A stretch of 64,000 nucleotides of DNA, from the NCBI GenBank assembly GCA_015058945.1, contig SVBF01000007.1, positions 66,230-130,229 on the forward strand, in the 5' to 3' direction. The stretch comes from Erysipelotrichaceae bacterium. Lineage in GTDB: Bacteria; Bacillota_I; Bacilli_A; RFN20; CAG-826. The notes below the pieces were generated by a model. It was not told the DNA's origin. It was given only the letters and a program-made list of their open reading frames with translations, and searched no databases. Each line of letters begins with the position of its first letter. Position 1 is the stretch's first letter. Made by a program: the position numbers and the translations under genes. Of the stretch, positions 26,205 to 44,890 are shown one piece after another.

Positions 26205-26708
26205 TTAGATGTTGTACCTACCGATCGCTTCGTCGAGGCGGGCGTTCAGGCCTCTGGTCCACTTGACCGCGTCACCGGTGGCGAAAGCGACATAAGCCTT
26301 CTTCGAGGTGTTGACGACGCCAGTCAAGACGCGGGAGAGGTATTCGCCGAGCTTGTCGGCCACGATCGCCTTGTTGACCGCGACGAGTTCATTGCCTTCG
26401 CCGTCCGAAGTGACGACGACAAAGGAATGGGTGCTCGTGCTCTCACCGGTGTAGGAGAAGGCGAGATTGGCGCCGATGTCGGCGGTTTGGGCGGCCTTCA
26501 CTTCGGTGGAGCCATAGGAGATCTTCACGTCGAGGGCTTCGGGGACGTCGAAATAGATTTTGCCCATGGCGACAAAGTCGATGTAGGTCGGTTGGGCGAT
26601 AGAGGATTCCGCTTGGGATGCTGGGGGAACGGAGCCGGATTGTTGTTCACCGCAAGAGGCGAGGAGCATGAGGCTCGCGATGGCGAATAAGGGAGTTTTA
26701 AGTTTCAT
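26205..26708 (-). CDS. Lipoprotein of unknown function
   Basis: Signal peptide with an LLASC lipobox. Confidence 0.65.
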   Translation of the reverse strand: MKLKTPLFAIASLMLLASCGEQQSGSVPPASQAESSIAQPTYIDFVAMGKIYFDVPEALDVKISYGSTEVKAAQTADIGANLAFSYTGESTSTHSFVVVTSDGEGNELVAVNKAIVADKLGEYLSRVLTGVVNTSKKAYVAFATGDAVKWTRGLNARLDEAIGRYNI

Positions 26709-26826: not shown

Positions 26827-28089
26827 TTATTTTGCGAAGGATACCGTGACTTTGGTGCCTTTGCCGACTTCGCTCTCGACCTTCATCTCGACCGACCCGA
26901 CCTGGCGCAGACGGTAACGGATGTTGTTGAGCCCGACGTGCTCGTTGGACTCGAAGTCGACTTTGTCCATGTCAAAGCCAACGCCATCGTCGATGACCTC
27001 GACGACATAACGGTCGCTTTCTTCATAAGAACGTAACGTCAGCGTCCCGCCCTCGACTTTCTTCAATATGCCGTGACGGACGGCGTTTTCCACTAAGGGC
27101 TGCACGCTAAGGGGCGGGACGTAGAAATCGGTCGCGGCGATGTCATAGACGACGCTAAGCCGCTCGCCGAAGCGGATCTTTTCCAAGGAGAGGAAGGCGC
27201 GGATATGGCTTAGCTCGTTGTCAAAGGCGATCATCCGGTTCTCCGTGAGGGAGGAAAGGTTCGCCCGGAGATATTCGGTGAAGTCGTCCAAAGCCGCCTG
27301 GGCTTTCTCGGGATCGATGGTGATCAAGGTCGAGATGGAGGAGAGGGAATTGTAGATGAAGTGTGGCTGAATCTGCGAAAGCATGACCCGGATTTGGGCG
27401 TCGCGCACCTTCTCCTCCTCACTCGCGAGGAGGATGTTGCGTTCCAAGTTGAGGAAAAAGAAGAGCACCTCGGTCGCCACGATGATGGAGAGATAGGCGA
27501 TCGCGTATCCTGGAAAGGCATCCTGGAAGGCGATGGCCACCACCGGCAAAAGACAATAGACCGCGAAGGCGATCTTCTCCCGGAGCTTCACCTTCTTGGA
27601 GAAGAGCGCATAGAAGAAGATGACCGCGAGCATCACGAACTGGTAACCCTGGGAGATTGGGAGCAACGGCAAACGGACATATTTTCCGCCTTGGGCCTCG
27701 AAGAACATCGGCACGAAGAGGTTCAGCACGTCGAGGAAGACGAACACCGCGAGCAAAGAGACGTTGAGGATGGCGAAGATCTTCGCCGTCTTCTTTTCCG
27801 GTTCCACATAACGGAGCATGTAGATGAAGAGGAAGAAAACCTCGAGGTTGTTCGCGATGTAAAAACCGGTATAGAAACCGCGGATCAACGCGTCGCTAGG
27901 CACATTGGCGCGCAAAAAGACGAAAGTGAAATAAGCGGCGAAATGGATGGCGGTGAAGGCGAGGAAGGCCAGCAAGGCGTTCTCGTCCTTACGCCGCTTT
28001 TTCTTCGTGGCGAGGTAGGCGATATGGACCAAAAAGATGACGATGCCGATCAGGCAGACGGTCGCGTTGAACATCGCGTTGTTTTCCAT
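26827..28089 (-). CDS. Sensor histidine kinase, LytS/YehU-type (polytopic N-terminus + His_kinase + HATPase)
   Basis: QIQPHFIYNSLSSISTL H-box and a C-terminal GHKL domain. It is the last gene of the peptide-export operon. Confidence 0.8.
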   Translation of the reverse strand: MENNAMFNATVCLIGIVIFLVHIAYLATKKKRRKDENALLAFLAFTAIHFAAYFTFVFLRANVPSDALIRGFYTGFYIANNLEVFFLFIYMLRYVEPEKKTAKIFAILNVSLLAVFVFLDVLNLFVPMFFEAQGGKYVRLPLLPISQGYQFVMLAVIFFYALFSKKVKLREKIAFAVYCLLPVVAIAFQDAFPGYAIAYLSIIVATEVLFFFLNLERNILLASEEEKVRDAQIRVMLSQIQPHFIYNSLSSISTLITIDPEKAQAALDDFTEYLRANLSSLTENRMIAFDNELSHIRAFLSLEKIRFGERLSVVYDIAATDFYVPPLSVQPLVENAVRHGILKKVEGGTLTLRSYEESDRYVVEVIDDGVGFDMDKVDFESNEHVGLNNIRYRLRQVGSVEMKVESEVGKGTKVTVSFAK

Positions 28090-28160: not shown

Positions 28161-29558
28161 TCAATCGATGTCGAGCGGGTTCTCGACGCGCCACTCCCCC
28201 ATCTTCGCGAGGACTTTCTCATACCACCCGTTCTCGAAGAAGAGGCATTTGGTGACGTCTTCGTGGAAATAATCTTGGTTTGGCGAATAGAGCAAGCCTA
28301 GTCCCGGGCAACCGCCGTTGCAGGCTTTGTAATAACGGCAGTTGCCGCATTTGTCGTTCTTCACGATTTGCTTTAACAAAGGCGCCGTCGCGAGGTTCAC
28401 GTAATCGCTATGTTTCAATAGTTCGCTTAACGGGGTCTTCAGGCAATTGCCCAAACTGATGCCCTTCTCGAGGAAATAGCCGGACATCTGAAGGCAAGGC
28501 ACCACTTCGCCGCTGCTCGAGACCGCGATCATGCCACGGGTCCCCTTGCACATGGGGATGCGAATGTTGAAGTCTTTCTTGTTGCAGGCGATCGGCACGA
28601 GTTCGTAGCTCTTTTGATTTGGATGCAGGCGCATGTATTGCCAAATGTCGATCTTCATCTTCAACCCGCTTTGGGCGTAAGCGGAGGCAAACTCGAGCAT
28701 GCGGTCGTAATATTCCTCGATCGATAGGCTCGACTGAGGCGAGTTCTTCTCCCACCGCGGCGCTTCGGTCGTGCGGATGATGCGCATCTCGTTGACGCCC
28801 ATCTGCTCGAGCAAAGCCGCCGTCTTCATCATGACGTCAACGTTTTTGCGGTTGACCTGGACCTGCGCCTTCACGCGGAAACCGTTATCTAAGCAGAGCT
28901 TTATGGCTTTGAGGGTCAATTCCTCGGCCTTGGGATGCTGACGGATCCAATTGTGGTAGCAGACGCCGTCATAGGAGATCTTGATCAAGGGACGGCAGCC
29001 GAGTTCCTTGAACACGTCGAGCATCTTTTGGTTCAAAAGCAGGCCGTTGGTGTTGAGCTCGAAGATCATCATGTCGCGTTCGTAGATGGCGCGGACGATG
29101 TCGAGGAAGCGCTTATGGACGAGGGGCTCCCCACCGGTCAATGTGAAGGCGTTGACGCCGACGTCTTTCGCCTGGTCCAAGATCGAAAGGATCTGCTCGA
29201 AACTTAGCTCCGAGTTCAGCGGCGCGTTGTCCTTCGCGTTAAAGCAATGGAGACAATTGAGGTTGCATTTGCCCGTCACCATGAGGTTCATGCGCGGGAA
29301 ATAAAGGTTGTCGTATTCCTTGAAACGGGACCATTCGCTCGGCTTTTGCCCCTTCTCACATTCCTCGATGAGGCCTTGGCGGAGCAAGTCCTCGAGGACG
29401 GGGCTAGGCTTTAAATCGGTCACGCCATCGCAACGAAGCAGGCATTCCATTTCCTCCGCGGAGACGCCAAAGGCGCAGTCCATCCCCTTACGGTAGACCG
29501 CGCGGTCGAGAAAGAGCCATTTCCTTAAGGCGATGTGGTCCTTCAGTCGGTAAAACAT
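28161..29558 (-). CDS. Radical SAM enzyme with C-terminal SPASM domain (peptide-maturase type)
   Basis: CNLNCLHC radical-SAM cluster motif near residue 98 and a C-terminal Cys-rich CGNCRYYKACNGGCPG. The first ~90 residues could be an RRE-like domain. Confidence 0.8.
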   Translation of the reverse strand: MFYRLKDHIALRKWLFLDRAVYRKGMDCAFGVSAEEMECLLRCDGVTDLKPSPVLEDLLRQGLIEECEKGQKPSEWSRFKEYDNLYFPRMNLMVTGKCNLNCLHCFNAKDNAPLNSELSFEQILSILDQAKDVGVNAFTLTGGEPLVHKRFLDIVRAIYERDMMIFELNTNGLLLNQKMLDVFKELGCRPLIKISYDGVCYHNWIRQHPKAEELTLKAIKLCLDNGFRVKAQVQVNRKNVDVMMKTAALLEQMGVNEMRIIRTTEAPRWEKNSPQSSLSIEEYYDRMLEFASAYAQSGLKMKIDIWQYMRLHPNQKSYELVPIACNKKDFNIRIPMCKGTRGMIAVSSSGEVVPCLQMSGYFLEKGISLGNCLKTPLSELLKHSDYVNLATAPLLKQIVKNDKCGNCRYYKACNGGCPGLGLLYSPNQDYFHEDVTKCLFFENGWYEKVLAKMGEWRVENPLDID

Positions 29559-29587: not shown

Positions 29588-30343
29588 CTATTGCCCGTCG
29601 AAGAACGCCCAATCGTATTGGGTCATGTATTCGCCGCGATACTGACGGATCGCGTCTTTGTTGCCCTTCTTGTATTCATAGGCGTCGCATTCCACCTTGG
29701 TCACGTCGATGAAGCATTCGGTGTAGCGCTTGACGAAGACGCCTTCCGCCCCCGCTTTGTTGAGAGTGTTTTGGATGTCGGCGATGAGGTTCCTCAAATA
29801 GGAGGGATGGTCCTCTTCCCATAAGACGGCGTTAAGTTCGTTGATGTGGATCGCCGAGCCCTCGCGGTCGACGAGGTAGGCAAAAGCCTCTTTCGATTTC
29901 TTGTAGGAGAAGCGCAAAGGTTCGCCGTCCCAGAAGGCCTCGAAATTGCCGAAGCACTTGATGCGCAGCTTCCGTTGCTTCGAGGAAATGGGATAACGGA
30001 GGTGGCTTAGTTCCTCCATGATCTTGGCCTTGCTCACCGGTTTGGTGACATAACCCGAGGCATGGATTTTATGGGCCTCGAGGGCGTATTGGTCATAGGC
30101 GGTGACGAAGATGACGTTGATCTCTGGGTTAACGAACTGCAGCCTTTTGGCGAGCTGGACGCCGTTAGTGCCAGGCATCTCGATGTCGAGGAATGCGAGG
30201 TCGAAAATCTGCTCCTTCGTGGCATCCATCGCTTCCTTGGAATTTGAAAAAGAGTGCGTTTTTGCGTCCGGAATGGCCTCTTTTACGGCTTTTTCGAGAC
30301 GTAGGAGCTGCAAGGGCTCGTCATCGACCAACATGATGTTCAT
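29588..30343 (-). CDS. Response regulator, REC domain + SARP/OmpR-type winged-helix with truncated BTAD
   Basis: N-terminal MLVDDEP...DLAFLDIEMPG receiver, then a C-terminal RIKCFGNFEAFWDGEPLRFSYKKSKEAFAYLV segment and WAFF. Confidence 0.75.
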   Translation of the reverse strand: MNIMLVDDEPLQLLRLEKAVKEAIPDAKTHSFSNSKEAMDATKEQIFDLAFLDIEMPGTNGVQLAKRLQFVNPEINVIFVTAYDQYALEAHKIHASGYVTKPVSKAKIMEELSHLRYPISSKQRKLRIKCFGNFEAFWDGEPLRFSYKKSKEAFAYLVDREGSAIHINELNAVLWEEDHPSYLRNLIADIQNTLNKAGAEGVFVKRYTECFIDVTKVECDAYEYKKGNKDAIRQYRGEYMTQYDWAFFDGQ

Positions 30344-30372: not shown

Positions 30373-32262
30373 TTAAAAACGCTTCTTGAGCACGAGCATG
30401 TTCTTGCCGTTGATGCGATCATAGGCGCATTCGGTCATGATGCTCTTGACGATATGGATGCCAAGTCCACCGACGTGGGCGAGGCTTTGCTCGGTGCCGA
30501 CGTCAGGGTTATCGACGTCGAGCTGATTGAACGGCTTGCCGTGGTCGATGACCGTGAGGACGAATTCGTTCTCGTCTTCGTTGAAGAGGAGGCGGAGGAA
30601 GACGTCGCCCGTCCCATCGGAGTCGGCATAACCATAGTTGATGATGTTGGACACGAGTTCGTCGCCGACGATGACGAGTTTGTTTTTGAAGTCGTCGGGG
30701 AAATGGTGTTCCTCGCCGAAGCCGCTAATCATGCCGAGGATCTGCGGGACGCTCTCCTTCGCCGCGGCGAAGCTCTGCTCCTTATAGGAATAGGAGCCGC
30801 CGCGGTATTTGAGGGTCAGATAAGTGATGTCGTCGCTTTGGGGCGCCCCAGCCACGAAGGCGTTGACGTCGTCTTTGATGGAACGGTGGAGTTCGACGAC
30901 GCTGCCATAGGGGCGGCGGTTCATCGTCTCAAGGAAGCGCTTCTCGCCATAGAAATCTCCGGCCCCGTTACGCGCCTCGGTGACGCCATCGGTATAAAGG
31001 GTGATGCTTTCGCCGGGCTTAAGGACGATGGTCTCGTCGCGGACGAAGACATCCTTGAAGCAGCCTAAGAGAAAACCGGAGTTGCAGGTGAGGTAATGAA
31101 AATCCTGGCTTAGGCCCACGATCGGGGGGTTATGGCCCGCATTAGCGAACTGCAACGTCCCATCGCGCTTATTGAGGATGGCGAGGAAGGCCGTGACGAA
31201 CATGCTGGATTTGTTGCCCTTGAAGATGGACGCGTTGATATCAGCGAGGATCTGCGAAGGGGTCTTGCCCGAAGTCGCCGCGTCGCGGAAGGAGGTGATG
31301 GTCTTCATCATGAACATGGCCGCGGGCACGCCTTTGCCGGAGACGTCGCCGATGAGGATCGCGACATGGTCGTCGTCGATATCGACATAGTCATAGAGGT
31401 CGCCGCCGACTTCCTTGGCCGCGCGTAGCTCCGCCACGATCTCGACGTCCTTGGAGGAGATGGTCTCGGAGGGCAACGTGTTCATCTGGATGTCCTTCGC
31501 GACCTCGAGTTCGGTCTTGCTCTTCTGGTATTCGCCGTTGACGCTGATCTCGCTCTCCATCAAGTCGTTCGTACGACGGTTGAGGAAGTACATCGAGAGG
31601 AAGAGCAACGTGACGAAAAGCGCCCTGCCGAGGTAATAGTTCGCGAAAATGTTGATGAAGCGGTTCTCCCCCACTTTCCCGAGGTCGACCAGATATTGCC
31701 ATCTGCCTTGGGCGGTATCGGGGTAGGCGTCGGGGAGGAGGCGGTTATAGATGAGCTGGGATTCCTTGTCAAGCTGACCGGAGAAGAGGTTCGCGTCGAA
31801 TTCGCCATAGAAAACGCCAAGGCCAAGGGCGATGAGCATCTCGATAAGGACCGCGATGAAGATCGACCGGCACACCTTGGGACTGTAATAATGGGCCGTT
31901 AACGCAATGCAAACCGCCCATCCGAGCACGGCGTGCTTGGGCATGATGACGTTCAAGACGCCGATCGCGAGGACGAAGAGGCCAAGCAGGAAGTATTTGT
32001 ACTTCGGATGCGCCAGGAATTTGGACTTTATCCAAAACATCGGCGAAACCAAGAAGAAGATGGTGATCGGAATGACGATAATCGTCATCCGGTAGGTGCT
32101 CTCGCCGACGGTGAAGAGCTTGAAGAGGTATCCGAAATAGACGAGGAAAAGCAAAATCGCGGTGAAAAGCGCCGCGAAGGACATGTGCCAGTTCGCGCTG
32201 CGCTCGTTTACGAGATATGCTTCGCGGCTCTCTTGTTCCGCCTTCATTGCTTCATTCCCCAA
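30373..32262 (-). CDS. Membrane-bound PP2C (SpoIIE-like) phosphatase fused to an RsbW/SpoIIAB-like GHKL serine-kinase domain
   Basis: About 8 TM helices, then PP2C motifs GDVSGKGVPAAMFMM and TDGVTEA, then a C-terminal ELVSNIINYG...DHGKPF...GGLGIHIV (N, G1, G2 boxes). Confidence 0.75.
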   Translation of the reverse strand: MGNEAMKAEQESREAYLVNERSANWHMSFAALFTAILLFLVYFGYLFKLFTVGESTYRMTIIVIPITIFFLVSPMFWIKSKFLAHPKYKYFLLGLFVLAIGVLNVIMPKHAVLGWAVCIALTAHYYSPKVCRSIFIAVLIEMLIALGLGVFYGEFDANLFSGQLDKESQLIYNRLLPDAYPDTAQGRWQYLVDLGKVGENRFINIFANYYLGRALFVTLLFLSMYFLNRRTNDLMESEISVNGEYQKSKTELEVAKDIQMNTLPSETISSKDVEIVAELRAAKEVGGDLYDYVDIDDDHVAILIGDVSGKGVPAAMFMMKTITSFRDAATSGKTPSQILADINASIFKGNKSSMFVTAFLAILNKRDGTLQFANAGHNPPIVGLSQDFHYLTCNSGFLLGCFKDVFVRDETIVLKPGESITLYTDGVTEARNGAGDFYGEKRFLETMNRRPYGSVVELHRSIKDDVNAFVAGAPQSDDITYLTLKYRGGSYSYKEQSFAAAKESVPQILGMISGFGEEHHFPDDFKNKLVIVGDELVSNIINYGYADSDGTGDVFLRLLFNEDENEFVLTVIDHGKPFNQLDVDNPDVGTEQSLAHVGGLGIHIVKSIMTECAYDRINGKNMLVLKKRF

Positions 32263-32268
32263 CGATTA

Positions 32269-32562
32269 TTAGAGCTTCTCGATTTTCATCAGGTTCTGGA
32301 AGCCGACCATCTCGAAGATGTCGTAGACCCCAGAGGGGACGCGGACGAGGCGGGTATCGTCGTAACGCTGCTTGAGGCGCACGATGATGCGAAGTCCGGC
32401 GGAGGAGATGTAACGGAGCTCCGCCATGTCGACGACGATGGAGCTCGGCTCGGTCGATTTGAGGATCTCCTCGACCTCCTTCTCCACCTCCTCGGAGTTG
32501 AAAGAGTTGAGTTCGCCCTCCAAATAGAGGGTCAACACTTTGTTTTCGATGGTATGTTTCAT
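32269..32562 (-). CDS. STAS-domain anti-sigma-factor antagonist-like protein
   Basis: 97 aa with the LRYISSAGLRIIV STAS core and a conserved Ser. Confidence 0.75.
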   Translation of the reverse strand: MKHTIENKVLTLYLEGELNSFNSEEVEKEVEEILKSTEPSSIVVDMAELRYISSAGLRIIVRLKQRYDDTRLVRVPSGVYDIFEMVGFQNLMKIEKL

Positions 32563-32573
32563 ATAAGGCCTCC

Positions 32574-34748
32574 TTATTTTGTGTCTAGCCTTTGCCGTTC
32601 GACGAGTTCGGCGAACCGGCCTTTTTTCGCTAATAGCGATTCATAGTCCCCGCTTTCGACCACGCGCCCGTCCTCGAGCATCAGGATGCGGTCGGCATGC
32701 TGGATGGTCGAGAGGCGATGGGCGATCACGATGCGGGTGCAGTTGAGCTTGTCGATCGCTTCGGAGATGCTCCGCTGCGTCTTGTTGTCGAGGGCGCTCG
32801 TGGCCTCGTCGAAGATGAGGATCTTCGGACGATGGACGATGGCCCGGGCGATCATGATGCGCTGCTTTTGCCCGCCCGAGATGCCGCCTTGGCCCTCGGA
32901 GATGACCGTCTTCATCTTCATCGGCATCGCGCGGATGTCGTTGGCGATGTCGGCGATTTCCGCCGCCTCCCACGCGTCTTTCTCGGTGAGGTTCGGGGCG
33001 GAGATGATGATGTTGGACAAGATGTCCGCATGGAAGAGGTTGCCCCCTTGCATGACGGTACCGATCTTGCGCCGCAACGAAGGCAAGTCGATGTCGTCCA
33101 TCGGAATGTCGTCGTAGAGGATGGTGCCAGAAGTCGGTTTCTCGAAGCCGAGAAGCAAACGCACGAAGGTCGATTTGCCGCACCCCGTCCTACCGACGAT
33201 GGCGACGTATTCGCCTTCGCGAATGTCTAACGACAGGTGGTCCAAAACATCCGGTCCGCCTTCATTATACTGGAAAGAAACATTGTCGAAACGGATATTT
33301 CCGTTCACGTGTTCCATGACGATTTTGCCTTGGATATTCTCGCTTTCGGCGGAGAGGATCGGTCGCGCGAGCTCAAATAACGGGGGCACCGTGAAGGAGA
33401 CCTCCACGATGCGGCCCACCGAGACGAAGGCGGCGGAGAGGATGCCATAGCTCGTCACGAAGGCCATGTAGTCGTCGACGGCGACGTTATATCTCGCGGC
33501 GAGGAAATAGATCGCCACGTTGCCGAGCAAAGTGATGAGCAAGGTGATCGCCGGGGCCAAGCGGATGATCAGCGGTGGGCTATAACGTGCCCTCGCGGCA
33601 CGATAATACACGCTCGCCCATTTGGCGAAGACGCGCTTCTCCGAGCCGGAGAGGCGGATCTTTTGGATGCCGTTGATCATCTCGTAGGTCACGCCGGACT
33701 CTTTGGAGGAGAGCTCGAGTTGTTTGGTCATGTGCCCCTTTCGCACGACGGAGACGATGACGGTGAACAAGGTCGAGGCGACCAGAATCAAAACGACGGG
33801 CAGGATCAACACGGGGGCAAAGCCCGCGAGCTGGAAGAGGTAGACCAAGGACATCACCGAGGAGATCAAGGCCGCGAAGATGCCGTTGACGATGGTGTTC
33901 GCAAGCAGTGGCACCGCGTTGAAGCGGGCGGTCATCTCGCCGGTGTTGTATTTCTTGAAGAAAGAGGGCGGTAGCGAAAACACGCGCATCATCGTCGCCT
34001 CCTGGATCGCCTTCTCGCGACGGATGGCGATATGCGAATTGACGAAGGTCTGCACCGCCTTGAGGAGCAATAAGCCGGTCGCGGTCGCGACGACGTAGAT
34101 CGAGATCGCGACGTATTGGACGATGTTTTTGTCCTGCACCACTTCGCCGGTCAAGATCTTGGTGAGGTAAGGCAAAAGCGCCCCGACCCCCACCACCGAT
34201 GCGGAGAGCACGCCATAGACGACCGTCTCCCAAAGGCGGATCGATTTGCGGATGTAACGGATGTATTCCTTTAACGACACCTTTTGGGTCGGCAGGGCGC
34301 GGTAGAAGCTATAGGCCTCCGCCTCGAGCTTATCGAAGATGCTTTCGGCGAGGCGCGTCTTCTTGCCCGTCTTGAAGTTGACGTAATAATAGCCCTTCTC
34401 GCCGCGAGGCAAGAGGACGACCGGGTTATGGCCCTCCTTGGTGAAGACGAGCAAAGGCGAAAGGTCGCCTTCTTTGATCGAGTCCTTGAGTTCGACCTTA
34501 TGGTATTGGATCTCATAGGGACGGAGAGCGTAATTGAACTTCTCCATCAGGGTGACGATGGAAGAGGGGATGTCGCCGAGCTGATGATGGTAGAAGGAAA
34601 GGACTTGGGCGACGGCTTGGTTCTCGCGCAGCGCTTTCTCGTCGAGCTGCCCGGAGGTATCCATTCCGGCGAGCGAACGGAAAGAATCCTCGAACGTCGC
34701 TTCGTCGAGTTTTCTGCGTTTGGCGATTTGTTCTTCGAACCAGCCCAT
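32574..34748 (-). CDS. NHLM-type bacteriocin-system ABC transporter, ATP-binding/permease subunit with non-peptidase N-terminal domain
   Basis: The N-terminal ~170 aa lack a catalytic Cys, then 6 TM, then an ABC ATPase (GRTGCGKST, LSGGQKQR, ILIFDEATS). Confidence 0.75.
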   Translation of the reverse strand: MGWFEEQIAKRRKLDEATFEDSFRSLAGMDTSGQLDEKALRENQAVAQVLSFYHHQLGDIPSSIVTLMEKFNYALRPYEIQYHKVELKDSIKEGDLSPLLVFTKEGHNPVVLLPRGEKGYYYVNFKTGKKTRLAESIFDKLEAEAYSFYRALPTQKVSLKEYIRYIRKSIRLWETVVYGVLSASVVGVGALLPYLTKILTGEVVQDKNIVQYVAISIYVVATATGLLLLKAVQTFVNSHIAIRREKAIQEATMMRVFSLPPSFFKKYNTGEMTARFNAVPLLANTIVNGIFAALISSVMSLVYLFQLAGFAPVLILPVVLILVASTLFTVIVSVVRKGHMTKQLELSSKESGVTYEMINGIQKIRLSGSEKRVFAKWASVYYRAARARYSPPLIIRLAPAITLLITLLGNVAIYFLAARYNVAVDDYMAFVTSYGILSAAFVSVGRIVEVSFTVPPLFELARPILSAESENIQGKIVMEHVNGNIRFDNVSFQYNEGGPDVLDHLSLDIREGEYVAIVGRTGCGKSTFVRLLLGFEKPTSGTILYDDIPMDDIDLPSLRRKIGTVMQGGNLFHADILSNIIISAPNLTEKDAWEAAEIADIANDIRAMPMKMKTVISEGQGGISGGQKQRIMIARAIVHRPKILIFDEATSALDNKTQRSISEAIDKLNCTRIVIAHRLSTIQHADRILMLEDGRVVESGDYESLLAKKGRFAELVERQRLDTK

Positions 34749-34761
34749 CCGTTCCTCCTTC

Positions 34762-36930
34762 CTACTCGTTGGTCACGAGCTCATAATACGGTCCTTTGGC
34801 CGCCATGAGCTCCTCGTGGGTCCCCTGCTCCGCGATCTCGCCGCCCTCGAGCATGACGATCAAATCCGCGTCGCGGATGGTCGAGAGACGGTGGGCGATG
34901 ACGATGGTCGTGATGCCCCTGGCCTTGACGGCGCGGACGACGTCGTATTCCGTCTTCGCGTCGAGGGCGCTCGTGGCTTCGTCGAGGATGATGATGCTCG
35001 GGTCGGCCGCGAGGGAACGGGCGATCTCCAAACGCTGTTTCTCGCCGCCGGAGAAGTTGCGCCCGCCTTCGAGCACCGCCGCGTTATACCCGCCTTCGCG
35101 CTGCATGATCTGGCGATGAATCTGGGCGTCGTTGCAGGCCATGATGATCTCGTAGTCCTCAATGGACTCATCCCACATGCGGATGTTGTTCGCGACCGTG
35201 TCCTCATAGAGGGTGATGTCCTGATCGACGACGGCGATGGAAGAGGTGAAGATCTCGTGGTCGATCTCCTCGATTCGCTTGCCATCAAAGATGATTTCGC
35301 CAGACCACGGCGAATAAAGGCCAGAGATCAGTTTGGAGAGCGTCGACTTGCCGCTGCCGGTCGAGCCGACGATCGCCACCTTTTGACCCTGCTTGATCTC
35401 GAGGTTGAAGTGGCGCAACACGGGTTCGTCCAAGGGCGAGTAGCCGAAGGTGACGTCGCGCAGGACGAGGTTGCCCTTGACCTTGGCGACGTTATCCATG
35501 GCCACCGAACGGGTGACGTTGGCGTCGAGGGGGTATTCGATGACGTCGTCGACGCGCTCCATCTGGGTGCGCATCTCCTGCAGGGTCTGACCGCTGTTGA
35601 TTAAGGTCATGGCCGGGGACATGAATAAACTCAAAATCGCCTGGAAGGACAAAATGGAACCGACGGTGAACTGGCCCTTGATGACGTAATAGATGCCGAG
35701 GACCAACACCGAATAGTTCGCGATAAGCGTGAGGAAGGCGGGCAAGATGCCGAGGGTTTGGTTCACCCGCGACATGCGGATCTTGCCTTTGGTGACGTTT
35801 TCCTCGACCTCCGCCCAGGTGTCGTAATAGGCCGCCTCGGCGCCGTTGCTCTTGATGGTCTCGATCATCTCGATGCCTTTGGAGGTCATGGCGGAAAGCT
35901 TGGCGGCATCGCGGGATTGGACGCGGGAGATGTTGACCCTGATCTTGGAGATGCGGTTGGAGATGAAGCCGTTGAGGACAATCGTCACCACGCCAAGAAG
36001 GGCGAGCGTCGCGCTTTTTTGGATCATGATGGTCAGGTAGACGACGATCATGATGGCGTTGAAGAAAAGCGGCGCGAAGACGTTCACGAGCGTTTCGGCG
36101 ATCGAGGCGTTCTCGCTTTGGCGCGACTGCAGATCGCCAACCATTCTCTGGGAGAAGAAATTGATGGGGAGGCGGAGGATGCGCCACATGTAGGATGTCG
36201 AGCCGATGAGGTCGAGTTTGCCGCTGATCTTATACGAATAGAGGGCCTGCACCCCCGTCACGACGACCTGCAGCAACCCGATGAGCCCGAACAAGGTCAA
36301 AAAGGGATAGAGCCAATCCGGGTTACGCCCGGCGAGCAGATAGTCGACGAAAACCTGCTCCATCGCCGGGGAGATGATGGTGAAGAGGTAGACGACGACC
36401 GAGGTGATGGAAAAGAACGCCATCAGAGGCACCGCGCCTTTGAGGCGGCGCTTAGCAAAGCCGATGATGGACTTCTTCTTGCCGCCGGGGACGAATTCCT
36501 CGGTGGGGACGATCTCCAAATAGACGCCGGTGAAGTACTCGTCGAAGGTCGCGACGTCGAGTTTCATCTGCCCACGCGCGGGGTCGTTGATGTACACCTT
36601 GTTGCCGCGGAAGCCGGAGACGACGACGAAATGGCCGCCGTTCCAGTGGACGATCGCGGGGAACTTGCCCCGCTGCTTGAGCTTCAACGCGTTAAGGGCG
36701 TAGCCTTTCGTGGCGAAGCCGTACTTACGGGCCGCTTGGAGGATGTTCTTCGCGCTCGAGCCGTTACGGGAGACGCCGCAATCGACGCGTAGTTGCTCTA
36801 ACGGCACCCATTTGCCGTAATAGGCCATGACCATGGCCAAAGAAGCCGCGCCGCATTCGAGGGCCTCGAGCTGCATGATGATGGGGACGTTGGCGACCCC
36901 TTTGGTTTTGGGCGTCTTGACCTTTCTCAT
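34762..36930 (-). CDS. ABC transporter with N-terminal C39 double-glycine peptidase domain (peptidase/permease/ATPase)
   Basis: QLEALECGAASLAMVMAYYG and HFVVV C39 motifs with TM and ABC domains. ATG at 36930 forms an ATGA overlap with the upstream gene stop; the track ORF start 36984 lies inside the upstream ORF. Confidence 0.8.
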   Translation of the reverse strand: MRKVKTPKTKGVANVPIIMQLEALECGAASLAMVMAYYGKWVPLEQLRVDCGVSRNGSSAKNILQAARKYGFATKGYALNALKLKQRGKFPAIVHWNGGHFVVVSGFRGNKVYINDPARGQMKLDVATFDEYFTGVYLEIVPTEEFVPGGKKKSIIGFAKRRLKGAVPLMAFFSITSVVVYLFTIISPAMEQVFVDYLLAGRNPDWLYPFLTLFGLIGLLQVVVTGVQALYSYKISGKLDLIGSTSYMWRILRLPINFFSQRMVGDLQSRQSENASIAETLVNVFAPLFFNAIMIVVYLTIMIQKSATLALLGVVTIVLNGFISNRISKIRVNISRVQSRDAAKLSAMTSKGIEMIETIKSNGAEAAYYDTWAEVEENVTKGKIRMSRVNQTLGILPAFLTLIANYSVLVLGIYYVIKGQFTVGSILSFQAILSLFMSPAMTLINSGQTLQEMRTQMERVDDVIEYPLDANVTRSVAMDNVAKVKGNLVLRDVTFGYSPLDEPVLRHFNLEIKQGQKVAIVGSTGSGKSTLSKLISGLYSPWSGEIIFDGKRIEEIDHEIFTSSIAVVDQDITLYEDTVANNIRMWDESIEDYEIIMACNDAQIHRQIMQREGGYNAAVLEGGRNFSGGEKQRLEIARSLAADPSIIILDEATSALDAKTEYDVVRAVKARGITTIVIAHRLSTIRDADLIVMLEGGEIAEQGTHEELMAAKGPYYELVTNE

Positions 36931-37319
36931 TGCGCGTTTCCGAACAGGAATTCGATCGGTCGGACCTCGCGATAGATGACGCAAAAGGGGTATTCGCCGT
37001 CCGCGACGTCAAACACCGACGCCATCACGCTTGACCCTTCGACGAAAGTGATCGAGCCTTCCTTGCCTGAGATGATGACCTTTTGCCCCACCGCGATCTT
37101 GGGACGGTCGTCCACTTGGACCAGTAACGTCGCCTCCCCATCGAGGACCTCGGCCGTGCCGAATGCCCGAAGCGGGAGGATGGTGAGCGTCGACCAGAGG
37201 AAAAGAGAAAGCAGCGAAACCGCCACCGAGGCCAGAATGACCCAGGTGACCGGCGAGGTGCGCTGGAGGTGACGGTTGAGCTCCTCCGGGCTCGAAATGT
37301 TCGCTTCGCTCTTCTTCAT
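36927..37319 (-). CDS. Mini HlyD-like secretion/membrane-fusion protein (N-terminal TM + beta domain)
   Basis: 130 aa; TM helix then VQVDDRPKIAVGQKVIIS...GSITFVEG, resembling an HlyD C-terminal barrel. It is the first gene of the operon. Confidence 0.45.
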   Translation of the reverse strand: MKKSEANISSPEELNRHLQRTSPVTWVILASVAVSLLSLFLWSTLTILPLRAFGTAEVLDGEATLLVQVDDRPKIAVGQKVIISGKEGSITFVEGSSVMASVFDVADGEYPFCVIYREVRPIEFLFGNAQ

Positions 37320-37495: not shown

Positions 37496-37969
37496 TTAGA
37501 GTTCGTGGTGGTCCAAATATTCCGTCAACGCGGCGATGGCCTGCTCGCCGTTGCTGCCCACGAAAAGCGCGTTGAGGCAGCCACTTATCATGGGATTATA
37601 GGTAAGCTTCATCGTCTCCACACGGGAATCGGTGCGGAAACCATAGCAAGGTTTGCCGATCGCATAAGCCATGCCGAGTTCGACGCAGGTCCCATCGTCG
37701 GGCACGCGTCCGTCGAGGATGGCGAAGAAAATGTCCGCCTTCTGCACTTCGTTCCAATCCCTGGCGAAGATCTTCTTGACGAGGTCCGCTTCGTTTAGCC
37801 CGGTGAGTTCGGCGGCTAGATAGCCGTCCCTCTGAGGAAGAAAAACCTTGTAGCCATATTCTTCGAGGATATGGACGATCTTGAGGTTGTATTCGAGTTC
37901 GGCCGCGCTGAACAAGGGAGCGGCGAAATAGATGCTCTTTGCGCTTTTCTTCATATGCTTGTCTCCCAT
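37496..37969 (-). CDS. Nucleoside 2-deoxyribosyltransferase family protein
   Basis: IYFAAPLFS...E N-terminal signature and a conserved C-terminal region. Confidence 0.65.
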   Translation of the reverse strand: MGDKHMKKSAKSIYFAAPLFSAAELEYNLKIVHILEEYGYKVFLPQRDGYLAAELTGLNEADLVKKIFARDWNEVQKADIFFAILDGRVPDDGTCVELGMAYAIGKPCYGFRTDSRVETMKLTYNPMISGCLNALFVGSNGEQAIAALTEYLDHHEL

Positions 37970-38027: not shown

Positions 38028-38061
38028 AAAGGGAAAACAAAACCGCCATAAAGGACGGTTT
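38028..38061 (-). terminator. Weak terminator after the precursor peptide gene
   Basis: AAACCGTCCTTTATGGCGGTTT hairpin + TGTTTTCCC in the minus sense. Confidence 0.4.
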
Positions 38062-38077: not shown

Positions 38078-38299
38078 TCAGGAGTCGATTTTGCGCTGCC
38101 CCAACGGCGTATCCTTGGGTTGGTCTTTGTCGTCGTCGCCGCCGCATCCGCCGCCGGAGACCGCGTCGAGCTGCTCGTCGCTAAGTTCTACGCCCTCGTC
38201 CTTGGCAAGCTGGAGGAGGTCGAAGGTGTTGTCGCATTCGGCGACCTTCTCGATCTGGTCCGCGGTGAGGCCTTTGAGCAATTCCTGTTTGACGTTCAT
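38078..38299 (-). CDS. Nif11-type leader peptide precursor with double-glycine cleavage site and 23-aa acidic single-Cys core
   Basis: MNVKQELLKGLTADQIEKVAECDNTFDLLQLAKDEGVELSDEQLDAVSGG | GCGGDDDKDQPKDTPLGQRKIDS. A GGAGGAA RBS lies 7 nt upstream. The track ORF extends upstream of the real start. Confidence 0.75.
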   Translation of the reverse strand: MNVKQELLKGLTADQIEKVAECDNTFDLLQLAKDEGVELSDEQLDAVSGGGCGGDDDKDQPKDTPLGQRKIDS

Positions 38300-38447
38300 G
38301 GTGTTTCCTCCTTCGTCTTGCCCATATCTTAGAAGGGCGTTTGTCACAGACTTGCCACACATTGGAAAAACTTTGGAAGTCCCGCCCAACATCGATACAT
38401 ATCCCGGGCGTATTATTGGACTTTACATTTGTATAGCCCTTATCCTT

Positions 38448-38489
38448 ATATTTTATATAAAAGAAGGCCGCGCGACGAGGCGCGGCCTT
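38448..38489 (-). terminator. Strong rho-independent terminator of preA
   Basis: AAGGCCGCGCCTCGTCGCGCGGCCTT with AT-rich tails on both sides. Confidence 0.65.
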
Positions 38490-41042: not shown

Positions 41043-42482
41043 TCATTCCTTGCCTTGATATTTGAGGCTTAGCAGGGTGATATCGTCGCTTTGGGGCGCC
41101 TCGAGGACGAAGGAGGCGATGTCCGCCTTCACCGTGGCGTGGAGGTGTTCCATGGAGTCGAACTGTTTGCCGGTGAGGCAGGAGAGGAAGCGCTTCTCGC
41201 CATAGAAGTCCCCCGACGCGTTACGCGCCTCAGTAACGCCGTCGGTATAGAGGGTGAGGCTCTCGCCCGGCTTAAGGACGATCTCCTCATCGGTCACGAT
41301 CGCGTTATCGAAGCAGCCAAGGAGCAAACCCGAGGAGCATTTGAGGTAATCGTATTTGCCCCCTTGCCCAAGGATCGGGGGATTATGGCCCGCATTAGCG
41401 AACTTCAAGGTCCCGTCGCGCTTATCGAGGATCGCGAGGAAAGCCGTCACGAACATCGCGGCCTTATTGCCTTTGACGATGGAGGAATTGATGTCCTTAA
41501 GGATCTGCGAAGGGGTCTTGCCCGCGGTCGCGAAATCGCGGAAGGAGGTGATGGTCTTCATCATGAACATCGCGGCCGGGATCCCCTTGCCGGAGACGTC
41601 GCCGATGAGGACCGCGACGTGGTCTTTGTCGATATCGACGTAGTCGTAGAGGTCGCCGCCGACTTCCTTCGCGGCGTTAAGCTCGCCGATGATCTCCACC
41701 CCATCGGAGAGGACCGCCTTGGTGGGCAAGGTGTTGATCTGGATGTCCCTGGCGACGTTAAGCTCGGTCTTGGCCTTCTCTTGCTCGTCGTGAACCTTGA
41801 TCTCGTCGTCGAGGAGGCGATAGGTGCGCTGATTGAGGATGTTGGACACCATGAAGAACAGCGTCACGATGGCCGCGCGGGGGAAGAAATAGAAAATCAG
41901 CACTTTGACGTAACGGTTATCCCCGTGGGCGATGCGGTCCTGAAGCAACGCCACGCGCTCCTCCAAGGTCTCGACCGTGCCGATCGTGCCATCGGATAAG
42001 ATCACTCCGCCGCCAAAGAGGTTCTCGTCGAACTCGCCGAAGAACATGCCGAGGTAGATGCAGCAAAGCATCGAGAGGATGCTCACCGCGTAGACGACCC
42101 TGCCGATCGTGGGGTTGTAATAATGGTTCGCGATCAAAATGACGAACGGCCAGAAGAGCAGGCTATGCTTCGGCAAGAAGACGTTGAGGGCGAAGATGAC
42201 CGCCATCAAGGAAAAGAGGATGAAATATTTGTACCCCGGCCTGCGGATCATGTCGGTCTTTAAGAAGAAAAGCGGCAGGAACATCAACACGGCCACGATC
42301 GGGAAGAGGATGTTCACCATCACGAAGAACTGCTCGGGGATGACGAAGACGCGGACGACGTAAAGGAGCCAAATGACCAGGGACAAAATGCCGGCCGCGC
42401 CATTGACGTAGCTCATGTACTTGTTCGCGTCGGCCTCGTGGTTGTAATAGGCCTGCTGGTATTCCTGTTTCCTTTTCGGCAT
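41043..42482 (-). CDS. Membrane-bound PP2C (SpoIIE-like) phosphatase, paralog of 30373..32262 without the kinase domain
   Basis: GDVSGKGIPAAMFMMKTITSFRDFATAGKTPSQIL... is nearly identical in its motifs to the fused paralog. Confidence 0.75.
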   Translation of the reverse strand: MPKRKQEYQQAYYNHEADANKYMSYVNGAAGILSLVIWLLYVVRVFVIPEQFFVMVNILFPIVAVLMFLPLFFLKTDMIRRPGYKYFILFSLMAVIFALNVFLPKHSLLFWPFVILIANHYYNPTIGRVVYAVSILSMLCCIYLGMFFGEFDENLFGGGVILSDGTIGTVETLEERVALLQDRIAHGDNRYVKVLIFYFFPRAAIVTLFFMVSNILNQRTYRLLDDEIKVHDEQEKAKTELNVARDIQINTLPTKAVLSDGVEIIGELNAAKEVGGDLYDYVDIDKDHVAVLIGDVSGKGIPAAMFMMKTITSFRDFATAGKTPSQILKDINSSIVKGNKAAMFVTAFLAILDKRDGTLKFANAGHNPPILGQGGKYDYLKCSSGLLLGCFDNAIVTDEEIVLKPGESLTLYTDGVTEARNASGDFYGEKRFLSCLTGKQFDSMEHLHATVKADIASFVLEAPQSDDITLLSLKYQGKE

Positions 42483-42564: not shown

Positions 42565-43665
42565 TCAGTCGATTTGAGGCTCAGGTTCCGGCTCTTCCTC
42601 GACGGAGTCGTTCTTGAAGTTGGCCGCGTATTCCTCATCGTATACGTCGATGGGCTGACCGTTCTCGTCGTACTCCTGGACGAGGTCCTGGGCGACGCTA
42701 TTCTGGAACTGTTCGTTGCCTACGGGCGGATGCTGCTCGTCATAGTCCTCGATCCCGGCCTCGCGCTCGGCGCGGCGTTCCCTGTTGCCGTTCATGATGG
42801 TCTCGTAGACCTGTTCGCCCTTACGCTGCTGCTGGCTGGTTAACAGGAGGTTATAGCTGAAGGCGGCGCGTTCTTTCCTCGTGCCGCTGAGGCGGTTGAT
42901 GTCTTCTTGGCTCGGCAGGCCATCCTCCGGATCCCAACTAGGGAAGACGTGGCGGAGGTATTCGGTCGCGGCCTTGTCCAAGGCGTCCAAGTCGCCATGG
43001 AGGACGTGGTTTGGTTTATTGAAGGCCTCATAGACCTGCCTGAGGTTCGCGTAGGCCGTGGAATACTTGCCAAACATCCCGGCGACGAGGCCCGGCTTGG
43101 TGTTCTCGAAGGCTTTGTCGAGCTGCGCCTTACCGCGGTAATTCGCTTTGAGGCGGGCCATGAAGTCGCGCCCGGTGGCGTCGACTTCATAGGCGTCGAT
43201 ACGTTGGGACATGGATCCGTCGAAATCGCCGGAGAGGACGGCGGACATGACCTGAAGGTCATTGAGACGTTTCTGCCCTTCCGGGGAATTGTCGTTTCCT
43301 CCCGCCTCGATCTGGATGAGGCGCGTGGTTTCGCCTTGGAGGTATTGCACCGGCTCGAGCATGAACTGACGGTATGGCGCGTCTTCTTCGTCACTGAGGT
43401 TCGGGTCGACGGATTCGTTAGGAATGACGATGCTCTTCTTTCGCCTTAAGGTGAGGGATGCGTCGGCGATTTTCATCTTCGCGATGTGGACGGCCTGCTC
43501 GAAGGGGACGTCACGGTTTTGCCCCGCCCCATAGGCGAGCAAGTAACGGGTGGTGAAGGCCATCTTGTCCTCGAGGTTCTCCAAGGAATCCATGCTGCTC
43601 ATGTAATCCGCCATGGAGATGTACTTCACTTTTCTGAGTATTTGTTCGCTTAGGATCTTCGGCAT
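42565..43665 (-). CDS. Hypothetical cytoplasmic protein, family A (acidic C-terminus)
   Basis: 366 aa, N-terminus MPKILSEQILRKVKYISMAD. It is paralogous to the next gene. Confidence 0.6.
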   Translation of the reverse strand: MPKILSEQILRKVKYISMADYMSSMDSLENLEDKMAFTTRYLLAYGAGQNRDVPFEQAVHIAKMKIADASLTLRRKKSIVIPNESVDPNLSDEEDAPYRQFMLEPVQYLQGETTRLIQIEAGGNDNSPEGQKRLNDLQVMSAVLSGDFDGSMSQRIDAYEVDATGRDFMARLKANYRGKAQLDKAFENTKPGLVAGMFGKYSTAYANLRQVYEAFNKPNHVLHGDLDALDKAATEYLRHVFPSWDPEDGLPSQEDINRLSGTRKERAAFSYNLLLTSQQQRKGEQVYETIMNGNRERRAEREAGIEDYDEQHPPVGNEQFQNSVAQDLVQEYDENGQPIDVYDEEYAANFKNDSVEEEPEPEPQID

Positions 43666-43801: not shown

Positions 43802-44890
43802 TTAGGCCTCGACGGAAGGCTCCTCGTCGTCGTTAACGAGCCCTTTCTCCATCTCGGATTCCTCCTCCACCGAGTCATCGATGAGGCTATCGTCATCATC
43901 GCTTAAATCGAGGACCAGGTTTTGCCTATGCTCGTTCTCTTCGGCGGGCTCGGGCCCTTTGATGGCCTCGACCGATTCGGCGGTCATCTCCTTGCGGGCG
44001 GCCTGGCCGACGATGGGCTTGAAGACCTCGTTATTCGCCTTTTGCTCGCGGATCGAGGCGAGGAGGTGTTCAGCGAAGCCTTCCTTTGGCTCACGGACGC
44101 GGAGGCCGACCGCGTTCTCCGCGGCGGAGCGGGTCGAAGCCTTGTAGTCGAGGTATTGGCTGGTCGCTTGCTCCAAGGCGTCCAAGTTGCCGTAAAGCGC
44201 GTGCTTGGGGTTATTGAAGGCGGCGTAGACCTCGTCGAAGTTCTTGCCGGCGTTGGAACGGGTGCCGAAGGTCCTGGTGAACCAGCTCGGACGGGTCACA
44301 TTCTCCATCTTTTTGAATCTCTCGCGGCCAAGGTATTTGGCCTCCATGCGGGCTTTGATGTCGAGGGGAGCCGTGCCCTTTTCCTCCATGGTGAGGATGC
44401 CGATGGACTTCTGGGTGTTGAGTTCCCGGCTTAAGCGGATGCAGTTCTCCTTGAAGCTGATTTCCTCATTAAGCTCCAAGTCCTGGTCCGAGATCTCCTT
44501 CACGCATTTCTCCGCCTTGCTCTTGAGGTATTCGGCGGGATGGCCGAGGAAGAACTGGTTCTCGATATCGTCCTTCTCGTCTTCGGCATAAGGGTTGACC
44601 GCCTGCTCGTTAAAGTCGATATAGAGGTCAGCGGGATCGGGTCCTTCCTCGTCGTTATAGATCTTGTCGCGAAGCTTTTTGGATTCGTCGACGAGTTTGA
44701 GCCTGGCGAGGTGGACGGCCTCCTCGAAGCTATAGTCGGTGGCTCTGCCATCGGCCCCATGGGAGAGGAGGCAATTGGTCGCGAACTCCACCTTGTCGTC
44801 GAAGTTCGGGATCATGTCGAGCTGACGGTAAAGGTCCGCCATCGAGGTATATTTGGCTTTTTGGATTTTCTCTCTCGTGATTTTCGGCAT
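43802..44890 (-). CDS. Hypothetical cytoplasmic protein, family A paralog
   Basis: 362 aa, MPKITREKIQKAKYTSMAD; shares VYAAFNNPKHALYGNLDALEQATSQYL with the neighbour. Confidence 0.6.
   Translation of the reverse strand: MPKITREKIQKAKYTSMADLYRQLDMIPNFDDKVEFATNCLLSHGADGRATDYSFEEAVHLARLKLVDESKKLRDKIYNDEEGPDPADLYIDFNEQAVNPYAEDEKDDIENQFFLGHPAEYLKSKAEKCVKEISDQDLELNEEISFKENCIRLSRELNTQKSIGILTMEEKGTAPLDIKARMEAKYLGRERFKKMENVTRPSWFTRTFGTRSNAGKNFDEVYAAFNNPKHALYGNLDALEQATSQYLDYKASTRSAAENAVGLRVREPKEGFAEHLLASIREQKANNEVFKPIVGQAARKEMTAESVEAIKGPEPAEENEHRQNLVLDLSDDDDSLIDDSVEEESEMEKGLVNDDEEPSVEA

Follow-up and report, generated by a model that had tools for sequence, protein, structure and literature searches.

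We analysed a 64,000-nucleotide stretch of DNA from an Erysipelotrichaceae bacterium (contig SVBF01000007.1; called the window for simplicity), focusing on a small minus-strand gene at positions 38078 to 38299 and on the gene cluster to which it belongs. Our preferred explanation, held with moderate confidence, is that this gene encodes the precursor of an exported peptide that is modified by a radical S-adenosylmethionine (radical-SAM) enzyme of the same cluster. The gene is real, its family is conserved, the cluster is syntenic in relatives and the protease of its exporter is homologous to LahT150; from this we infer that a modification may occur, what its chemistry could be and that the product may act as a signal.

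According to the proposed mechanism, the 50-residue leader, a shortened form of the Nif11 type, would be bound by an N-terminal leader-recognition domain of the enzyme, which would then modify the core at or through Cys52, our best guess being a thioether to a downstream residue, possibly Asp or Glu. The exporter pair (36984-32574) would cut after Gly50, as expected from the homology to LahT150, and secrete a 23-residue hydrophilic product, which would most likely be an extracellular signal and not a membrane-active toxin. Candidate sensors are a six-helix histidine kinase with its response regulator, and/or a membrane-bound SpoIIE-kinase with a STAS protein.

A conserved precursor gene with a Gly-Gly leader

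The open reading frame (ORF) consists of 73 codons plus a stop codon, with the ATG at 38299 and the stop codon at 38080-38078, and all 73 residues of the translation given in an initial annotation of this DNA were reproduced exactly from the minus strand. Codons 1-50 (38299-38150) constitute the leader, which ends in VSGG, and codons 51-73 (38149-38081) the predicted core of 23 residues, GCGGDDDKDQPKDTPLGQRKIDS. We found 183 homologues of the precursor, and a profile search retrieved, at E <= 1e-3, 1,777 representatives of 50%-identity clusters that have the same leader; because of these relatives the ORF is a real gene and not a chance ORF. All homologues start at or just before the ELLKGL motif, and two in-frame ATGs further 5' in the window (38392 and 38362) are used by none of them. 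In the family alignment the leader is nearly invariant and Cys52 is present in at least 90% of the sequences. Compared with the orthologue in locus L001, synonymous codon changes number 8 in the leader and non-synonymous ones 4; in the core, the non-synonymous changes, 7 in number, are confined to codons 59-68, and the core ends GCGGDDDK and RKIDS are unchanged. These changes show purifying selection on the leader and on both ends of the core. As judged from its homologues, the system is conserved and uncharacterised in rumen and gut Bacilli resembling Erysipelotrichaceae, with relatives in Lachnospiraceae and Coproplasma. The window peptide matched no curated Pfam or NCBIfam family above any cut-off, the sub-threshold NCBIfam matches being a CTB bacteriocin family (21.4 bits) and the NHLP leader model TIGR03793 (17.4 bits against a cut-off of 50.9, over the last 32 profile positions only). 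Literature searches on ribosome-made, post-translationally modified peptides (RiPPs) of the rumen or of Erysipelotrichaceae, on SpoIIE/STAS proteins with radical-SAM enzymes and on single-cysteine Nif11 peptides found no paper on this system.

The Gly-Gly site stands in the context L(-12)SDEQL(-7)DAV(-4)SGG, the positions of which are conserved in the family alignment, and the leader has the hydrophobic residues at -4, -7 and -12 and the acidic or polar residue at -8 or -9 by which we defined a double-glycine leader. A regular-expression scan of the window for such leaders returned this ORF and one other, antisense; apart from the precursor, the 64 kb contain no Gly-Gly-leader ORF. That it is a genuine Gly-Gly-leader precursor, as first annotated, we regard as practically certain. 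The leader had further been described as classic Nif11, and of this description the relation to the wider Nif11/NHLP group stands whereas the word classic does not: the window peptide gave no match to TIGR03798 (Nif11 leader; curated cut-off 32.3 bits) or PF07862 even at E <= 10. Short-leader relatives score 18-23 bits against TIGR03798, and long-leader precursors beside 44-47% identical enzymes in Coproplasma, Lachnospiraceae and Oscillospiraceae score 31.5, 33.7 and 38.9 bits. Since long-leader relatives reach the cut-off and the window leader gives no match, the latter is a shortened derivative and not a curated Nif11 member; by eye it looks like a Nif11-type leader from which the middle segment has been deleted. 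A lipoprotein lipobox, considered for the GG-x-C context, was rejected by inspection (no hydrophobic signal region, no hydrophobic residue at -3).

Close to the precursor lies the gene for a cognate ATP-binding cassette (ABC) exporter whose C39 protease domain is intact. The N-terminal 170 residues of this exporter match LahT150 (PDB 6MPZ) with 197 bits (E = 1.6e-57), and the ECGAAS motif around the presumed catalytic Cys is kept; the true start of the exporter is probably the ATG at 36930, and the alignment with its homologue begins at 36924. LahT150 is shown experimentally in PMC6363468 to cut Nif11-type and other leaders at Gly-Gly, to require only the last 13 leader residues and to tolerate varied residues after the cut. 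The homology of the two protease domains thus supports cleavage after Gly50 well, and we consider it highly probable that the leader would be removed at this site. As LahT150 makes use of no more than the final 13 residues of a leader, the remainder of this leader of about 50 residues probably serves the maturase.

A single cysteine beside the cleavage site

Core statistics were obtained from 101 non-redundant short cores of the family, and counts of acid spacing from 92 of these. Exactly one Cys is present in 98 of the 101 cores; it occupies core position 2 in 93 and is followed by Ser in 70, Gly in 14 and Thr in 8. The C-terminus conforms to [RKH][RK]x[ED]x in 70 cores, with R-K-[IFY]-[DE]-S as the consensus. 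A Cys at most 4 residues from the cut site was found in all 101 short cores, in 66/70 long cores with a short leader and in 33/35 long cores with a long leader, as well as in ~97% of 207 diverse cores and in 133 of the 140 best cluster representatives. No other signature of the family is as general as this Cys next to the cut, and given the tolerance of LahT150 for the residues after the cut, the protease is unlikely to require it.

The window core is hydrophilic and zwitterionic, with 6 Asp, 3 Lys and 1 Arg (net charge -2) arranged so that the N-terminal half is acidic and the C-terminal end basic; the mean net charge of the short family cores is +0.6. The core had initially been called atypical and highly acidic, a view that we abandon, since its type is the norm in a near-neutral family of more than 100 members. 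The earlier description missed the two truly conserved features, namely the position of this Cys near the cut site and the C-terminal RK[IFY][DE]S. Nor does Cx3D, proposed as the defining motif, define the family: present once in the window core, it occurs in only 24 of the 101 cores (Cx3[DE] in 41), and the first acidic residue follows the Cys after 0-12 intervening residues.

The same leader is found on other cargo. Besides short peptides, there are zinc-ribbon mini-proteins, usually with 5 Cys (four of the ribbon and one extra), and long leaders also carry domains of 60-90 residues; among the best matches, at the level of 50%-identity clusters, long cores outnumber the short peptide type by 111 to 29. 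Arrays of 4-6 tandem genes for same-leader proteins of 85-100 amino acids (L009:5562-7631, L016:485-2106, L024:6546-7823 and L055:1272-2766) sit 5' of the HipA-like gene described below, the precursor and the radical-SAM enzyme, and each of the encoded proteins has one Cys by the cut site followed by a four-Cys zinc-ribbon-like domain. A second class of short cores behind the same leader, again with a Cys near the cut, has P-[IVT]-x-N-P-[FY] as its C-terminus in place of RK[IFY][DE]S (L011:7508-7696, L077:10001-10198, P0112, P0113, P0252, P0302, P0306, P0324 and P0371), an indication that C-terminal recognition motifs are of two or more kinds. In 2 of 77 loci only (L004:9756-9983 and L005:2195-2422), a second, unrelated Gly-Gly-leader peptide of 75 amino acids is encoded just 5' of the family precursor; its core contains three tandem GPGKHRKIDA repeats, then a single Cys and an acidic tail. 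The reuse of the HRKID motif in this unrelated peptide suggests that HRKID is a functional unit in its own right. A triceptide-like His cyclophane at the H-R-K of this motif was rejected, His being present in 26/101 cores and the window peptide having Gln.

Probable pairing of the precursor with a radical-SAM enzyme

As judged from gene order in relatives, the likely partner of the precursor is the 465-residue enzyme at 28161-29558, and we regard modification of the precursor by this enzyme as probable. The enzyme has the general features of a radical-SAM/SPASM maturase (PF04055 and PF13186): the CxxxCxxC motif (C98/C102/C105) and the seven Cys of the SPASM domain (C337, C355, C404, C407, C413, C417 and C438) are all invariant, and so is an additional residue, C325. 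Its N-terminal ~88 residues were modelled with high confidence as a beta-strand/helix domain, which probably binds the leader. The partnership had been proposed initially and gained credibility from the relatives, where a 75%-identical orthologue, that of locus L004, lies directly 3' of a family precursor at a distance of 10 nt; the window contains orthologues (46-76% identity) of all components of the L004 cluster except the HipA-like gene. With the enzyme as query, 62 loci were retrieved from species-representative genomes, and 33 of these combined usable flanks with an enzyme of 70% identity or more. The precursor lies directly beside the enzyme in 23 of these 33 close loci, usually 5-35 nt 5' of it, is found elsewhere within 10 kb in 5, as in the window, and is missing from the remaining 5; among more distant loci it is adjacent in 10/27. 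The canonical order is kinase, regulator, HipA-like gene, precursor, radical-SAM enzyme, a 126-131-residue protein, two exporter genes, STAS and SpoIIE-kinase. From the adjacency in 23/33 relatives it follows that the cluster has been rearranged in the window, and likewise in its close relative L001 (with P0121 on the same contig): the precursor has been relocated ahead of the other genes, together with a regulatory region of its own, and the HipA-like gene is missing.

Several observations weigh against this pairing, and most of them would be expected if the product were an unmodified Gly-Gly-leader pheromone or class II-like peptide, the enzyme acting elsewhere or on other peptides with the same leader. 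The precursor of the window is separated from the enzyme by 8.5 kb and nine genes, 10 of the 33 close loci have no adjacent precursor, and the enzyme orthologues of Lachnospiraceae often have none either. Precursors are also retained in loci in which the enzyme has been deleted or does not occur within 10 kb (L011, with a deletion remnant of the enzyme, and orphan copies in L002, L003, L075 and L077), a pattern that is also expected of dispersed precursors processed in trans. Furthermore, the unrelated Gly-Gly peptide of a relative repeats HRKID three times with only one, late Cys. An unmodified peptide is nevertheless difficult to reconcile with the position of the precursor beside the enzyme in most close loci, with a leader far longer than the protease needs and with a near-universal Cys by the cut site that LahT-type proteases do not require. 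In addition, the window offers no other candidate substrate; neither tblastn nor a motif scan detected a second precursor near the enzyme. We consider an unmodified product unlikely and retain modification by the enzyme as the preferred reading.

Individual loci show further variation around the two genes. In L011, the deletion remnant is an ORF of 65 amino acids (L011:10381-10578) that joins the N- and C-terminal ends of the radical-SAM enzyme, with the precursor and exporter genes intact. The HipA-like protein (394-399 amino acids; L004:8502-9686, L007:8744-9943, L011:8732-9931 and L077:8732-9931) is encoded directly 5' of the precursor in most relatives, even in those without the radical-SAM enzyme, and is missing from the window; searches for curated or solved relatives returned nothing beyond a weak HipA_C match (E = 0.0017). 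One cluster contig with a 70% identical enzyme (L035, JAFUHJ010000089.1) is binned in a 'Candidatus Methanomethylophilaceae archaeon' genome, a placement that is most likely a binning error.

Possible chemistry at Cys52

The enzyme matched 78 curated families, none near its own cut-off. The best of these matches, heme b synthase AhbD (114 bits, cut-off 500), reflects only the generic SPASM fold, the SCIFF maturase model was not among the best matches, and anti-phage defence models were rejected, as they gave only generic viperin-like matches to the radical-SAM core. The best 120 homologues listed are 72-79% identical to the enzyme. The closest solved structures are SkfB, SuiB and anSME, with structure-comparison values of 19.0, 17.6 and 17.5, respectively.

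Three observations make a Cys thioether the most likely chemistry: SkfB as the nearest relative, the presence of just one Cys in the core and, in 90 of the 92 cores, an acidic residue somewhere after it. As the nearest solved relative, SkfB is a weak pointer to a Cys-to-alpha-carbon thioether, the linkage of sactipeptides. A thioether from Cys52 is still a tentative assignment, which we hold with rather low confidence. What weighs against it is, first, that the fold comparison does not separate formation of thioethers, C-C cross-links and formylglycine, and that the structure model of the enzyme is poor in the SPASM region. Second, the eight invariant Cys in the C-terminal half of the enzyme could be enough to occupy every ligand position of both auxiliary clusters, the situation in anSME and SuiB; in thioether synthases, CteB among them, one auxiliary-cluster site stays open. 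Third, no fixed acceptor residue accompanies the family Cys in the 92 cores.

A narrower proposal is a ranthipeptide of the PapB type, in which Cys52 would form a small thioether ring with a nearby Asp of the CGGDD (Cx2D/Cx3D) context; in PapB-type products the Cys sulfur is joined to the beta or gamma carbon of Asp or Glu. In the window core, Asp is found at spacings of 2, 3 and 4 residues from the Cys, and no more than six residues separate the Cys from the first acid in 80/92 cores. In vitro, PapB accepts Cys-Xn-Asp spacings of n = 0-6 (PMC9413430). PapB can also link Cys to a C-terminal residue (PMC12373016), and the enzyme of the window is of the same radical-SAM/SPASM class. However, it scores only 68.5 bits against the PapB family model NF047865, far from the cut-off of 340, so that the PapB-type enzyme of the initial annotation could not be upheld. 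In the family, Cx3D is confined to the minority of cores given above and the spacing between Cys and acid is not fixed: acidic residues are restricted to the last three positions in 8 of the 92 cores and absent from 2, and 82 have Asp or Glu as the last residue but one, at a distance of 9-19 residues from the Cys. A PapB-type ring also leaves unexplained the conserved C-terminal RK[IFY][DE]S and the retention of the Cys in zinc-ribbon and other cargo. We consider it improbable.

Alternatively, the enzyme could modify the Cys next to the cut site identically in every protein with this leader, as part of a general tag-and-export pathway feeding the SpoIIE-kinase/STAS sensor. The cargo would include the RK[IFY][DE]S peptides, zinc-ribbon mini-proteins of 40-50 residues and beta-rich domains of 60-90 residues, and the chemistry would involve no fixed partner residue, e.g. 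conversion of Cys to formylglycine or a link to its immediate neighbour. Such general tagging seems to us rather unlikely.

Cluster composition and a possible signalling role

The features of the window that belong to the cluster or flank the precursor are compiled in Table 1.

Table 1. Positions of the precursor gene, its flanking signals and the cluster genes in the window.
Feature	Position	Strand	Evidence and remarks
Terminator-like hairpin after preA	38464..38489	-	-20.7 kcal/mol; z = -3.9; 0/200 shuffles fold as well
Ribosome-binding site GGAGG	38307..38311	-	Read directly; 7 nt 5' of the ATG; surrounding sequence identical in L001
Precursor peptide gene	38078..38299	-	ORF and translation, homologues, family alignment, codon changes
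Weaker terminator-like hairpin with T-rich tail	38040..38061	-	17 nt after the precursor stop; z = -1.9
Nucleoside deoxyribosyltransferase-like protein	37496..37969	-	Between precursor and export genes
130-residue protein, one transmembrane helix	36927..37319	-	TIGR03794 22.8 bits, profile positions 2-50; 46% identity to L004 homologue
Peptidase-containing ABC exporter (C39 protease, membrane and ATPase domains)	34762..36984	-	TIGR03796, 836 bits vs cut-off 853
Second ABC exporter subunit, without protease domain, NHLP-system ABC2 type	32574..34748	-	TIGR03797, 622 bits vs cut-off 709
STAS-domain protein, anti-sigma-factor-antagonist type	32269..32562	-	TIGR00377 62.6 bits, above cut-off
SpoIIE-kinase: ~five-transmembrane protein fused to SpoIIE/PP2C phosphatase and RsbW-like kinase domain	30373..32262	-	SpoIIE 171 bits, HATPase_c_2 69 bits
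Response regulator, receiver domain residues 1-112	29588..30343	-	70% identity to L004 regulator
Radical-SAM/SPASM peptide maturase, 465 residues	28161..29558	-	Radical_SAM and SPASM domains; 75% identity to L004 enzyme
Sensor histidine kinase, six transmembrane segments	26827..28089	-	PF06580 (His_kinase), PF02518 (HATPase_c)

The genes for the STAS protein and the SpoIIE-kinase always come after the exporter genes in relatives, the STAS gene directly after the second of these. The STAS protein has a YISSAGL motif, which includes a candidate phosphorylatable Ser (read from the sequence), and the SpoIIE-kinase is likely its partner-switching sensor. The response regulator is conserved 5' of the precursor in canonical loci; its C-terminal ~130 residues had no Pfam match. 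Homologues of the histidine kinase (53-62% identical) are encoded 5' of the regulator in L013-L015, L019, L020, L032, L034 and L049. As for the export genes, the second ABC subunit adjoins the first exporter in relatives as well, and the 130-residue protein, which resembles only the first 50 residues of the HlyD-type secretion protein of NHLP systems, is conserved before the exporter in a version of 126-131 residues in most loci of relatives.

A signalling role of the product is suggested by the hydrophilic core with fixed ends and a variable middle, together with the invariable presence of kinase, regulator and STAS/SpoIIE-kinase. We judge this role to be plausible but somewhat short of probable; that the suggestion comes from gene neighbourhood and peptide composition weighs against it. 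The same neighbourhood could indicate an antimicrobial bacteriocin whose two-component system serves the usual autoinduction of bacteriocin loci, an exporter combined with a two-component system being typical of class II bacteriocin loci. The sub-threshold match of the leader to the CTB family, one homologue that its source labels 'bacteriocin-like protein' and the arrays of paralogous cargo genes in some loci would agree with this. Yet the core lacks any hydrophobic or amphipathic stretch, and the cluster has no conserved gene for a small, immunity-like membrane protein. Fixed ends around a variable middle are also more in keeping with a peptide recognised by an enzyme or receptor than with one that acts on membranes. 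We regard a bacteriocin as very improbable.

The arrangement of the precursor gene supports the earlier suggestion that it has its own ribosome-binding site (GGAGG at 38307-38311) and is flanked by terminators, one hairpin being strong and the other weaker, and independent expression, also suggested then, is plausible given these hairpins. The hairpin at 38464..38489 is terminator-like and would insulate the gene from upstream transcription, whereas the one at 38040..38061 is only suggestive of a terminator. No sigma-70 consensus promoter was found for the gene, and a search for known RNA elements in the 26-45 kb region of the window returned none. The 5' untranslated region (38330-38460, minus strand) is strongly conserved with respect to L001:9780-10000 and includes a 26-nt block, ATACAAATGTAAAGTCCAATAATACG, which is probably a promoter or operator. 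As this block is present in a single copy in the window and, among the 77 loci, otherwise only in L001, an operator shared by several genes was rejected; a repeat scan for such an operator was uninformative.

The genes preT and preA, located 5' of the precursor, are apparently unrelated to the system. The nucleoside deoxyribosyltransferase-like gene of the window and the insertions found between precursor and export genes in L001 (a GGDEF protein and an S41 peptidase) are absent from canonical clusters and are probably passengers. Further 5', the window encodes a second membrane SpoIIE phosphatase (41043-42482, minus strand), which is 52% identical to the SpoIIE-kinase fusion, including the membrane domain, and has no kinase domain; this paralogue is also present in L001. 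Two paralogous proteins of 362-366 residues with very acidic C-terminal tails (42565-43665 and 43802-44890, minus strand) had no Pfam or NCBIfam match, and genes of the same size were called 5' of the SpoIIE paralogue in L001. After the histidine kinase, the window encodes a 167-residue protein with a lipoprotein-type signal (LLASCGE; 26205-26708, minus strand), whose homologues are weak and found in only 2/62 loci, so that it is probably not part of the system.

Relation to known systems and significance

The system is of a known kind, a radical-SAM/SPASM peptide pathway with export through a Gly-Gly leader, and is set apart by an enzyme clade outside the curated families, an unusual conserved site and unusual regulatory partners. 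Its protease is a very close homologue of that of the LahT/LahA system of Lachnospiraceae bacterium C6A11 (PDB 6MPZ; Bobeica et al. 2019, PMC6363468), with which the system also shares Nif11-related Gly-Gly leaders and the use of one exporter for several precursors with diverse cores. LahA leaders are reported to be of the Nif11 type and are apparently much longer (~9-10 kDa with a His6 tag), whereas the window leader of ~50 residues fails the Nif11 model; moreover, the window cluster adds the radical-SAM/SPASM enzyme, the STAS protein and the SpoIIE-kinase, and radical-SAM is not mentioned in the searched text of PMC6363468. As in NHLP/Nif11 systems with NHLM export, the NHLM ABC1 and ABC2 models are the best matches of the two exporters and the small membrane protein resembles the beginning of the HlyD-type protein of NHLM, but all of these scores lie below the curated cut-offs (853, 709 and 156 bits) and the HlyD-like protein is cut down to 130 residues.

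With the ranthipeptides (freyrasin/PapB and SCIFF/CteB) the system has in common a radical-SAM/SPASM enzyme and a Cys-containing core, most family cores being acidic shortly after the Cys and PapB tolerating variable spacing. It differs in that PapB-type ranthipeptides have a conserved, usually repeated Cys-X3-Asp/Glu and SCIFF peptides about six Cys, neither of which characterises the family. The sporulation killing factor (SkfA/SkfB) contains one Cys-to-Met alpha-carbon thioether. In streptococci, streptide (SuiB) and related families of radical-SAM peptides are under quorum-sensing control by Rgg/SHP, in place of the two-component system and STAS/SpoIIE module of the window; streptide has a Lys-Trp cross-link whereas the window core is without aromatic residues, and the leaders are unrelated.

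The close relationship of the protease to LahT150, a widely used tool, should make reconstitution of the pathway straightforward. If our model holds, the cluster represents an abundant and so far unstudied peptide system of rumen and gut Firmicutes. Its enzyme lies outside the curated radical-SAM families and has as its apparent target a single Cys by the cut site, whatever the cargo, which could mean a new chemistry or a new way of tagging exported proteins. The link to a two-component system and to a membrane PP2C-kinase/STAS module suggests a type of peptide-signalling circuit for which we found no report in the literature.

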